The notes under the pieces: model-generated
What the model was told of the DNA's origin: nothing
Databases searched by the model: none
What the model saw: only the letters and a program-made list of their open reading frames with translations
Shown: in pieces, positions 41,444 through 43,024 of the stretch
How positions within the stretch are numbered: position 1 is the first letter of the stretch
How the letters are laid out: each line of letters starts with the position of its first letter
Assembly: GCA_023390655.1 (NCBI GenBank)
Contig: JAEWCL010000015.1
Location: forward strand, 48,946-112,945
DNA from: Bacillota bacterium
GTDB taxonomy: Bacteria; Bacillota; Clostridia; Christensenellales; CAG-138
Reading direction: 5' to 3'
DNA length: 64,000 nt
Translations under genes and position numbers: made by a program

Positions 41444-43024
41444 GTGTCGGTAAAGAAGAATTGGTTTGCCTGTCTGGCTGTCGCGATATTTGAAATTTGC
41501 GCTGTATATACCCTGTTCAGCGGCATGATGCATTTGGCTGGCGCCAAGCCACATCGGTTTCTATGGTATGGCGGGATCATCTGCGTCCTTGCGGCGGCAT
41601 GGGCCTCCATCCACATTGCTTCGCGGCTCATGGTTCGCTGGAGGCCGTCGGTCTTTCAACAGGATCAGCAACGGCGGGGGATCATTGTTGAGCGGGCAAT
41701 CGTTGCGTTTGTGATCGCAGCAAGCGCCATGATGCGAATCTGGGTGATCGCAAAGCTTCCGATTGCTCCCTCGTCGGACTATCAAACATACTATCAGGTC
41801 GCCGACTTGCTCTCTAAGGGCGGCCTTGGCGGCTCGGGCTACAGCGGTTACATTGCGCAATTTCCGCACGTGATCGGTTATCCCTTTATACTGTCGCTTC
41901 TTTTCAGGATTACGGGTCCTTCGCTGCAGGCGGGGCTTTATCTGAATATGGCTGCCGCCCTGCTCAATGTTTTTCTAACCTACCGCATTGCCCGCGTGCT
42001 GGGCGGGCGTCTGAGCGGCATGATTGCGTTGCTTGTGGCGGCATTCTGGCCTTCTCAAATTTTATATGGAGCAATTCTTGCATCCGAACCCGTCTTTACC
42101 TGTATGCTGCTCCTATCCATATGGCTTTTTATTTATTTGTATCGGTATCCGGCACGGCTGTGGAACAGGGAAGGCGCTGTATTTCTATGCTTTCTTCTGG
42201 GTGTTTCCCTTGCGCTCTCCAATGCCGTGCGCCCCCTATCGGTCATACTGCTTGTTGGAGTGATTCTCTGTATCATACCCTTTACCATAAGATTCGATAA
42301 AAACGAAAAGATGCTCAACGGAAAATTAAGCCGGGCGTCCTGTCAAGGCTGGTTCCTCGCCCTGGTTATTTCGTTGAGCTTCCTTCTTTGCAGCCGGTTG
42401 ATCTCCGCATCGATTTCCAACACGATCGCTTACAAATTGCCCGGGGGCAGCGTCTCCTTTGGCTATAACCTTATGGTCGGCGTCAACATAGAGGCAAAAG
42501 GCGCCTGGAATCAGCAGGATGCGGAGTTTTTCTCAAACGAGTTTGCGTCGACGAATTCGCCGCAGGCGGCGCATCAGGCCAGCGTTGGCGTTGCGCTTGC
42601 GCGCATCGGCAGCGACCCCGTCGGGATTCTTAATCTGGCCATGGAGAAATTTACGTTTGTCTGGAGCAACGACGATTACGCCGGGACATGGACGACGCTC
42701 TTTCTGGAACAGCAGGGCGGGCTGACCCCGGAACGCGCGAACATCATCAACGCGTTTGCGCAGTGGAATGACTGGTTCTACCTGCCGAGCGTCTTCTTTT
42801 CTTCCATCTTAGGATTTCAATTGTTCAAACGGAAAGATACCGGCCCCGTGCAGGTGCTGATTTTGCTGTTTGTCGGCACGGTAATTTTGCATTTATTTCT
42901 CGAATCGCAAAACCGCTATCACTATTTTATGTTGCCGGTCTTTACGGTGCTTACTTCCATGGGCATCGCGGAAATATACCGGGCGTATATGCGCAGCCAA
43001 ATCCGGGAATCAACGCTGCCCTGA
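41444..43024 (+). CDS. polytopic GT-C-fold glycosyltransferase-like membrane protein (PMT_2/ArnT/GT39-like)
   Basis: GTG start 8 nt after GGAGG. It has about 10 or more hydrophobic helices, a first-loop region PSSDYQTYYQVADLL...FPHVIGYPF typical of the PMT_2 family, a soluble loop of about 140 aa, and C-terminal helices. Confidence 0.65.
   Translation: MSVKKNWFACLAVAIFEICAVYTLFSGMMHLAGAKPHRFLWYGGIICVLAAAWASIHIASRLMVRWRPSVFQQDQQRRGIIVERAIVAFVIAASAMMRIWVIAKLPIAPSSDYQTYYQVADLLSKGGLGGSGYSGYIAQFPHVIGYPFILSLLFRITGPSLQAGLYLNMAAALLNVFLTYRIARVLGGRLSGMIALLVAAFWPSQILYGAILASEPVFTCMLLLSIWLFIYLYRYPARLWNREGAVFLCFLLGVSLALSNAVRPLSVILLVGVILCIIPFTIRFDKNEKMLNGKLSRASCQGWFLALVISLSFLLCSRLISASISNTIAYKLPGGSVSFGYNLMVGVNIEAKGAWNQQDAEFFSNEFASTNSPQAAHQASVGVALARIGSDPVGILNLAMEKFTFVWSNDDYAGTWTTLFLEQQGGLTPERANIINAFAQWNDWFYLPSVFFSSILGFQLFKRKDTGPVQVLILLFVGTVILHLFLESQNRYHYFMLPVFTVLTSMGIAEIYRAYMRSQIRESTLP

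Follow-up and report, generated by a model that had tools for sequence, protein, structure and literature searches.

Synthase-dependent exopolysaccharides are known to be modified outside the membrane by acetylation, deacetylation and addition of phosphoethanolamine. In Escherichia coli, the NfrB-NfrA-YbcH/WecB system of the N4 glycan receptor depends on the synthase NfrB, which is activated by cyclic di-GMP (c-di-GMP) and uses UDP-N-acetylmannosamine (UDP-ManNAc) derived from WecB; Gram-positive homologues of NfrB are mentioned only as rare and with no GT-C partner (PMC8669469, PMC8669472). The product of E. coli NfrB is wecA-independent (PMC8669472). The Pss and Yda operons of Listeria and Bacillus, as described, have five genes and no PMT_2-type GT-C glycosyltransferase. 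In the three-component systems (GtrA/GtrB/GtrX, CsbB-GtcA-YfhO, WsfH-WsfD and GacI-L), a GT-C enzyme works outside the membrane on a glycopolymer that is already complete, to which it adds a sugar carried on a lipid phosphate (PMC5836110, PMC11127046, PMC2943079). Here a 64,000-nucleotide stretch of a Bacillota genome (contig JAEWCL010000015.1, positions 48,946 to 112,945; hereafter the window) was analysed, in which the gene of a polytopic membrane protein (41444-43024, forward strand, 526 aa, GTG start) stands between the gene of an NfrB-like GT2 synthase with an MshEN domain and a wecB gene. The best explanation of the data is that this protein belongs to a GT-C subfamily dedicated to c-di-GMP-controlled, synthase-dependent, UDP-ManNAc-using exopolysaccharide systems of Clostridia. 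The chances are about even that it is an extracytoplasmic transferase which takes its sugar from a polyprenyl phosphate and decorates a ManNAc-based polymer, its donor, acceptor, topology and the synthase product all being presumed. No description of a GT-C glycosyltransferase as a component of synthase-dependent exopolysaccharide operons was found in the literature searched.

The original prediction, which was made from the letters of the window, had taken the protein for a GT-C/PMT-like partner of an NfrB-type synthase. The open reading frame (ORF), its translation and the reading of the sequence confirmed the 526-aa polytopic protein at 41444-43024 together with its motifs and the GGAGG ahead of it, and the GT-C/PMT_2 likeness was borne out by profile and structure searches. 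PMT_2 (PF13231) was matched by 43 of 46 aligned homologues at E<=0.01, with a best E of 5.4e-13. The AlphaFold2 (AF2) model of the protein is all-helical (pLDDT 91.2, pTM 0.91). When it was compared with the PDB by Foldseek, the best 20 matches were all GT-C proteins (probability 0.99-1.0, E=8e-5 to 4e-3), among them STT3, AglB, ALG3, ArnT, PIG-U, Pmt4, EmbB and PglB. Many homologues have precomputed PF13231 matches and some are named 'glycosyltransferase family 39 protein' (NCBI) or 'ArnT-like' in public sources. The GT-C call is already present in public annotation; what is new is the conserved embedding of the gene in c-di-GMP exopolysaccharide operons. No NCBIfam model matched the 526-aa protein. 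Judged from the profile matches, the family-level link to PMT_2 appears solid, and on its model the protein is accepted as having a predicted GT-C fold and as PMT_2-like; its CAZy family (GT39 or GT83) is not established. In a set of 5.8 billion proteins 87 homologues were found, and an exhaustive profile search with the family returned 699 cluster representatives at E<=1e-30; the gene is therefore no chance ORF. An identical 526-aa product was gene-called on public contigs (P0001). By these searches the family appears to be a sizeable, unstudied and distinct subfamily.

Residue conservation was analyzed in 77 full-length family sequences taken from genome loci of both operon contexts described below. 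All 77 share about 23 invariant polar or aromatic residues, including R98, D112, H142, S204, E215, R263, S338, W355, N356, D359, R387, K402, W407, D410, Y446, H483, E487, Q489, R491, Y492 and H493. F140 and P141 are likewise invariant in 77/77, and all 20 distant relatives compared have D112 as well. Relatives of 23-28% identity keep R98, D112, P141, N168, P203, S204, E215, R263, K402, D410, Y446, E487, R491, Y492 and H493. Between the two operon contexts one conserved site alone differs. A topology prediction, which the original prediction had called for, was made from the AF2 helices. It gave 12 transmembrane (TM) helices with both termini inside, and this arrangement fits the positive-inside rule, with 13 Lys and Arg residues in the cytoplasmic loops against 3 in the short outer loops. 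Every invariant residue falls on the predicted outer face of this 12-TM model. By the positive-inside rule, and not by structure superposition, the first loop and the invariant residues are predicted to face outward. As the invariant polar residues lie on the predicted outer face and their core is kept in distant relatives, the conservation pattern looks like that of an enzyme and not of a passive scaffold.

A TM helix pair (residues 1-66, 41444-41641; AF2 helices 7-33 and 38-66) stands ahead of the GT-C core, and its residues F8, Y22 and G43 are kept in at least 91% of the 77 sequences in both contexts. Judged by eye, a distant relative (P0087) has a similar pair of N-terminal hydrophobic segments. 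The first extracytoplasmic loop (residues 105-160, 41756-41923), identified by conservation and the topology model, contains PIAPSSDYQTYYQVADLL (residues 106-123, 41759-41812) with Asp112 (codon 41777-41779), and then FPHVIGYPF (residues 140-148) with FPH142. The original prediction was right in proposing this loop, which holds an invariant Asp, but its placement had to be corrected: because helices 7-33 and 38-66 precede the core, the loop follows the third TM helix. The D-x3-Y...FPH pattern of the loop resembles DETRY...YFEKP of ArnT, as a lead seen by eye. A soluble loop of about 140 aa had been expected at residues 300-440; the AF2 model places a TM helix at 302-328 there, followed by an extracytoplasmic helical loop of about 100 aa (residues 329-428, 42428-42727). 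This loop is rich in invariant polar residues, namely S338, N342, W355, N356, D359, R387, K402, W407 and D410. The expected three C-terminal helices were found in the model at 429-462, 469-485 and 492-524. The short outer loop between the last two of them carries the motif ESQNRYHY (residues 487-494, 42902-42925), of which E487, Q489, R491, Y492 and H493 are the residues invariant in 77/77, and E, R, Y and H are also present in relatives at 23-28% identity.

The protein shares with the ArnT/PMT_2 GT-Cs (PF13231; CAZy GT83/GT39 area) the GT-C fold, a PMT_2-like region that scores under the Pfam cut-off, presumably a polyprenyl-phosphate-monosaccharide donor, and a first outer loop that opens with an invariant acidic residue and continues with an aromatic/Pro motif. 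Unlike ArnT, it has two extra N-terminal TM helices and, in place of the C-terminal soluble domain, the 100-aa helical loop before the last three helices. Its gene also differs from that of ArnT in lying in an exopolysaccharide operon, without donor genes of the ArnC/ArnEF type.

To describe the gene neighbourhood of the family, one genome per GTDB species was scanned, which gave 80 loci; ORFs were called, and the neighbours were clustered and the clusters annotated. All loci were from Clostridia except one, in a bin labelled Bacteroidaceae. A GT2-MshEN gene precedes the GT-C gene only in the closest clade (at least 59% identity), which comprises 12 intact loci, the public contig with the window operon included, and one locus with a split GT-C gene. 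Within this NfrB-linked clade gene order and strand are constant, and the gaps between synthase and GT-C are 6-73 nt. A neighbour-joining tree placed the clade as a monophyletic group nested among the other family members. At L008 (8001-9593) the GT-C gene is split into ORFs of 299 and 224 aa, by a frameshift or an assembly error, while L029 and L031 have two GT-C paralogues in tandem. In about 60 other loci, from Ruminiclostridium, Lachnospiraceae, Lacrimispora, Blautia, Clostridium neonatale and others, the GT-C gene lies in a Pss/Yda-like operon. Among culturable carriers, Sporobacter termitidis DSM 10068 (L013) has the NfrB-linked type, and Ruminiclostridium cellobioparum DSM 1351, Lacrimispora spp. 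and Clostridium neonatale have the Pss-like type. The original prediction of an NfrB-type synthase as partner holds as an operonic link in the 12-locus clade, but this is not the characteristic context of the family. Synteny with GT2-MshEN genes is likewise confined to this small clostridial clade, and most homologues stand beside another GT2 and a BcsB-like protein.

Besides the GT-C, the Pss-like operons encode a membrane-anchored thioredoxin-like protein, a polytopic hexose transferase of the WsfD/YfdI-like type, one protein with a degenerate GGDEF and another with DUF2334, a 433-aa PgaC/IcaA-like GT2 and a BcsB-like protein; many also have WecB, and some an MBOAT together with a LamG-like protein. 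The gene set of Listeria pssA-E/pssZ and Bacillus ydaJKLMN matches these operons, which have extra components (PMC4125290, PMC13274460, PMC7479077). Shared are the degenerate GGDEF, DUF2334, PgaC/IcaA-like GT2 and BcsB-like proteins, probably a GH126-type hydrolase, and the supply of ManNAc. None of the Pss/Yda genes is present in the window. WecB stands beside the GT-C in 6 of the 12 NfrB-linked loci and within reach of it in at least 24 of the 60 Pss-like loci. Altogether, exopolysaccharide operons of two synthase types hold the GT-C gene in 72 of 76 loci with an intact copy, and where the operon is cut down to synthase, GT-C and WecB, the GT-C is the sole accessory gene kept. A tblastn search with the catalytic region of the window GT2 found no match at E<=1e-5 in any Pss-like locus, so the two GT2 types are at best distantly related. 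Other NfrB-like synthases of Bacillota, 48-60% identical to that of the window, had a GT-C neighbour in none of the five loci sampled. Since the GT-C occurs in two operon types and is lacking from all five of these loci, it is dispensable to NfrB-like synthases. What it goes with is a class of polysaccharide systems under c-di-GMP control and supplied with ManNAc, not NfrB as such. A search for NfrB-like GT2-MshEN synthases gave more than 2000 matches in Bacillota, where they are abundant and usually solitary (L082-L087). Two such synthases occur at L087, where a GGDEF protein follows one and WecB the other, and in L085 the synthase is followed by a 1219-aa SLH/SASA protein.

These neighbourhoods bear on an alternative in which the protein transfers no sugar and is a non-catalytic subunit, a membrane scaffold or an outer-face guide like BcsB, PgaD/IcaD or NfrA. 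We consider such a role unlikely. It would agree with the position of the gene 6-73 nt behind the synthase in every intact NfrB-linked locus, with the conserved extra N-terminal TM pair, with the docking-like look of a cytoplasmic tail motif in the Pss-like clade (see below) and with donor-supply genes that are not linked; GT-C-fold pseudo-enzymes also exist, and PIG-U of the GPI transamidase is among the Foldseek matches. However, the invariant outer-loop Asp and about 20 charged or polar residues of the outer face in the 77 sequences are typical of an active site, and this set persists in the relatives of 23-28% identity, which come from contexts other than exopolysaccharide operons. In most operons a BcsB-like protein is already encoded alongside the GT-C, Bacillota NfrB-like synthases elsewhere do without a GT-C, and the fold of the window synthase matches that of self-translocating synthases. 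An export guide that replaces BcsB or NfrA was rejected as a candidate: operons with the GT-C also encode BcsB-like proteins, and most Bacillota NfrB-like synthases have no GT-C next to them. The original prediction had offered the stand-in for NfrA as one of three options; the five of five solitary NfrB-like loci and the BcsA/hyaluronan-synthase-like fold of the synthase itself argue against it.

The GT-C proteins of the Pss-like loci (L014-L081) have a cytoplasmic tail of 60-210 aa beyond the residue equivalent to window position 43021, with the motif FDMxxAIxxGHVTVTVSEAY. This tail, which could serve to dock the protein to the Pss machinery, is missing from the NfrB-linked clade, the window protein included. 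Downstream of the GT-C in 55 loci and at L067 (9914-11554) lies the gene of the membrane-anchored thioredoxin-like protein, which has a CxxC motif, a Ser/Thr/Asp-rich linker after the membrane anchor and a C-terminal domain of about 330 aa, and which is missing from the NfrB-linked clade. It is probably the Trx-GH126 fusion (PssZ/YdaJ-type) of PMC7479077; Pfam did not confirm the GH126 part. The linker would agree with a GT-C that O-glycosylates surface or membrane proteins, as PMT or streptococcal PgtC2/PgfM1 do, and is only loosely linked to the polymer. PMT_2 is named after protein mannosyltransferases, and GT-C enzymes of Firmicutes do modify Ser/Thr-rich disordered regions by means of an unlinked GtrB; these protein-modifying enzymes, though, belong to the YfhO family and not to PMT_2 (PMC12041528). 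In the NfrB-linked clade the thioredoxin-like neighbour is missing and the active-site residues are nonetheless unchanged, and the conserved residence in two types of polysaccharide operon points to the polymer, which makes protein glycosylation very unlikely.

The WsfD/YfdI-like hexose transferase was found in L014-L081 and L089 (NF051875 415 bits, PF27133 YfdI_N; for example L030, 11468-13009, and L061, 4841-8011) and is sometimes a tandem fusion of 1056 aa. Comparison of the GT-C family with this co-occurring family by hhalign showed no relation. WsfD of Paenibacillus alvei adds alpha-1,6-Glc to ManNAc (PMC2943079), and the Pss polymer of Listeria is a ManNAc chain with alpha-1,6-Gal branches (PMC13492145). 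From this linkage and this branch the WsfD-like proteins are obvious candidates for branch transferases and, by analogy, good candidates for those of Pss-type polymers. If so, a second and different role is left for the PMT_2-type enzyme.

The synthase gene (39338-41404, forward strand, 688 aa) encodes a processive GT2 with a C-terminal MshEN-type c-di-GMP-binding domain, assigned by Pfam, NCBIfam and AF2; the gene caller favours an ATG at 39347, which gives 685 aa. The protein matched Pfam Glyco_tranf_2_3 with 155 bits and the NCBIfam NfrB model NF008411 with E=1.2e-96 and 324.7 bits, short of the equivalog cut-off of 1170. By these scores it appears to be NfrB-like without being an orthologue of NfrB. 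At residues 482-531, where binding is predicted, the model NF053729 for the MshE-related c-di-GMP motif scored 50.1 bits (cut-off 38). The motifs DSED159, TED258 and QKTRW311 place the protein among processive GT2 enzymes. Its AF2 model (pLDDT 84.5) had BcsA (5e-13), hyaluronan synthases, CesA and chitin synthase as top Foldseek matches, and PcManGT (6yv7), a minimal cellulose-synthase-like mannosyltransferase, was also among the structural matches. In its model the synthase resembles self-sufficient, channel-forming synthases that translocate their own product. Like the E. coli system, the window operon combines a GT2-MshEN protein having TED, QxxRW and the c-di-GMP motif with a linked wecB, as in many NfrB loci (PMC8669469, PMC8669472). 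It differs as a monoderm version without NfrA or YbcH, for which no similar gene was found in the operon, and the proteobacterial operons that have been described include no gene equivalent to its GT-C gene.

It was also considered that the GT2-MshEN protein loads ManNAc on polyprenyl phosphate and that the GT-C carries out transfer or polymerisation outside the membrane, in a lipid-mediated pathway gated by c-di-GMP. A GT2 followed by a GT-C and accompanied by a sugar-nucleotide epimerase is the classic three-component layout, as at the P0087 locus; for Lactobacillus johnsonii, a homopolysaccharide synthesis that depends on a lipid carrier has been proposed (PMC7117936), and PcManGT would agree with such a pathway. 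Against it, the synthase has the TED and QxxRW motifs found in processive synthases, is strongly homologous to NfrB and has its best structural matches in BcsA and hyaluronan synthases, and most members of the GT-C family stand with a PgaC/IcaA-like GT2 and BcsB. Such a pathway seems most improbable.

The gene pair itself is separated by a spacer of 39 nt (41405-41443) between the synthase stop codon (41402-41404) and the GTG start of the GT-C gene, with a GGAGG ribosome-binding site at 41430-41434, 9 nt ahead of that start. The original estimate of about 40 nt was close, but the proposed translational linkage did not stand, as the GT-C gene has its own ribosome-binding site and no overlap. 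The pair forms an operon with a separate ribosome-binding site and not a strictly, that is overlappingly, coupled unit. According to the ORF list of the window, three genes follow one another on the same strand with short gaps, the third being WecB, a non-hydrolysing UDP-GlcNAc 2-epimerase and source of UDP-ManNAc (43048-44229; start at 43105 per the gene caller). It scored 472.9 bits with TIGR00236 (cut-off 210) and 382 bits with Epimerase_2.

On these data the following sequence of events is proposed for the decorating transferase. Binding of c-di-GMP to the MshEN domain would switch on the GT2 synthase, as in E. coli NfrB. WecB would make UDP-ManNAc, from which the synthase would polymerise a putative ManNAc-based chain and thread it through its own membrane channel, predicted from the model to be like that of BcsA and hyaluronan synthase. 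The GT-C, at the outer face, would draw on a polyprenyl-phosphate-linked sugar provided by genes at another site in the genome and would attach this sugar to the polymer as it emerges, either as a branch or as a cap. Both this transfer and the proposed active site, namely Asp112 of the first outer loop with the invariant Arg, Lys, His and Glu of the outer loops, are suggested by the fold, by residue conservation and by the gene context. The GT-C would be an accessory modifier and not an obligatory export partner, because the active-site set is unchanged beside an NfrB-like or a PgaC/PssC-like synthase with BcsB, and because five of five other Bacillota NfrB-like synthases lack a GT-C and the synthase model looks self-sufficient. 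In concept this is like the outside-face polytopic GT-C of the three-component systems, from which it differs in the proposed acceptor, a c-di-GMP-gated synthase-dependent exopolysaccharide and not an O-antigen, teichoic acid or S-layer glycan, and in that the GtrB and GtrA partners are not linked to the GT-C gene. Of the three options in the original prediction, decoration of the nascent polymer seems to fit best.

Several observations weigh against decoration by this enzyme. PMT_2 matched the window protein itself at residues 144-278 with 24.3 bits (E=4e-5), under the gathering cut-off of 26.1. Searches by phmmer with the protein, and with the 46-sequence profile, against all PDB chains found no solved GT-C, giving solely spurious potassium-channel matches at E>1, and hhalign of the family profile with E. 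coli ArnT gave no significant match (E=0.68). The Foldseek TM-scores were just 0.28-0.45, so the GT-C likeness holds at superfamily level only. The Pss-like operons already hold the WsfD/YfdI-like candidate branch transferase, and a second transferase is not obviously needed there. Functional assignments for the family are predictions from sequence and model. The 64-kb window contains nothing like GtrB/CsbB or GtrA, and neither a GtrB/CsbB-type GT2 nor a GtrA flippase was found among the conserved neighbours of about 76 loci; with no such gene linked, the donor is entirely hypothetical.

For the wider family there is an indirect hint of a lipid-linked donor. P0087, which has 31% identity and keeps all motifs, lies in a Wzm/Wzt glycan cluster with WecB and is directly followed by a split PgfS/ArnC-like polyprenyl-phosphate GT2, so annotated from its sequence. 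GT2 enzymes of this kind are the classical donor-making partners of GT-C enzymes. Other distant relatives, from metagenomes, are mostly in housekeeping or rhamnose gene contexts outside exopolysaccharide operons and are uninformative on donor linkage. In Firmicutes there is precedent for unlinked GtrB genes that serve GT-C enzymes (PMC12041528, PMC5836110).

The GT-C could also act as a ligase-like polymer transferase, which anchors the chain made by the synthase, or a primer, to a lipid, wall or protein acceptor. Oligosaccharyltransferases (STT3, AglB, PglB) are the best Foldseek matches, the scores of which fail, however, to separate them from ArnT, PMT or Emb. The Pss polymer of Listeria is cell-associated by a mechanism that is not known (PMC13492145), and the GT-C is the one accessory gene retained in the reduced operon. 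Against this, known en-bloc transferases of the GT-C type require a donor linked to polyprenyl pyrophosphate, which synthase-dependent pathways do not make, the NfrB product of E. coli does not depend on wecA (PMC8669472), and a ligase gene nearby, of the LCP family, is not conserved in related loci. Ligase-like transfer is accordingly doubtful, and its specific form, a polysaccharyl-transferase that covalently fixes the chain of the c-di-GMP-gated synthase to a surface lipid, the wall or a protein, is quite unlikely.

The synthase/GT-C/WecB operon is an island flanked by two clusters for sugar uptake and utilisation (32839-38560 and 44595-49785), one with a substrate-binding protein/ABC permease, a CE2/GDSL esterase and a GH13 enzyme and the other with DUF3798 and an ABC transporter, and no further envelope-biogenesis genes adjoin it. 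The LCP (LytR_cpsA_psr) gene for a glycopolymer-to-wall ligase lies about 6 kb downstream (50362-52017, reverse strand); near related loci it is not conserved, which leaves its link to the operon doubtful. On the 5' side of the synthase there are 777 non-coding nt (38561-39337). An Rfam scan upstream of the synthase gave no match, and hence no c-di-GMP riboswitch or other RNA, and promoter and terminator scans of this region gave signals at background level only.

A function for the pairing of such a synthase with a GT-C, which the original prediction had called unassigned, was not found in the literature searched. If the GT-C adds a sugar to a ManNAc polymer or anchors it, the GtrB/GT-C logic of O-antigen and teichoic-acid decoration would extend to biofilm polysaccharides controlled by c-di-GMP. 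The family would then allow a genetic approach to the chemistry of a surface polymer, abundant though unstudied, of Clostridia from gut and soil (Oscillospiraceae, Lachnospiraceae, Ruminiclostridium and Clostridium neonatale). Anchoring, if true, would be a new route by which synthase-dependent exopolysaccharides are fixed in monoderm bacteria, and would explain cell-bound ManNAc polymers such as Listeria Pss. The NfrB-like synthases, common and usually solitary in Bacillota, are relevant to phage-receptor biology.

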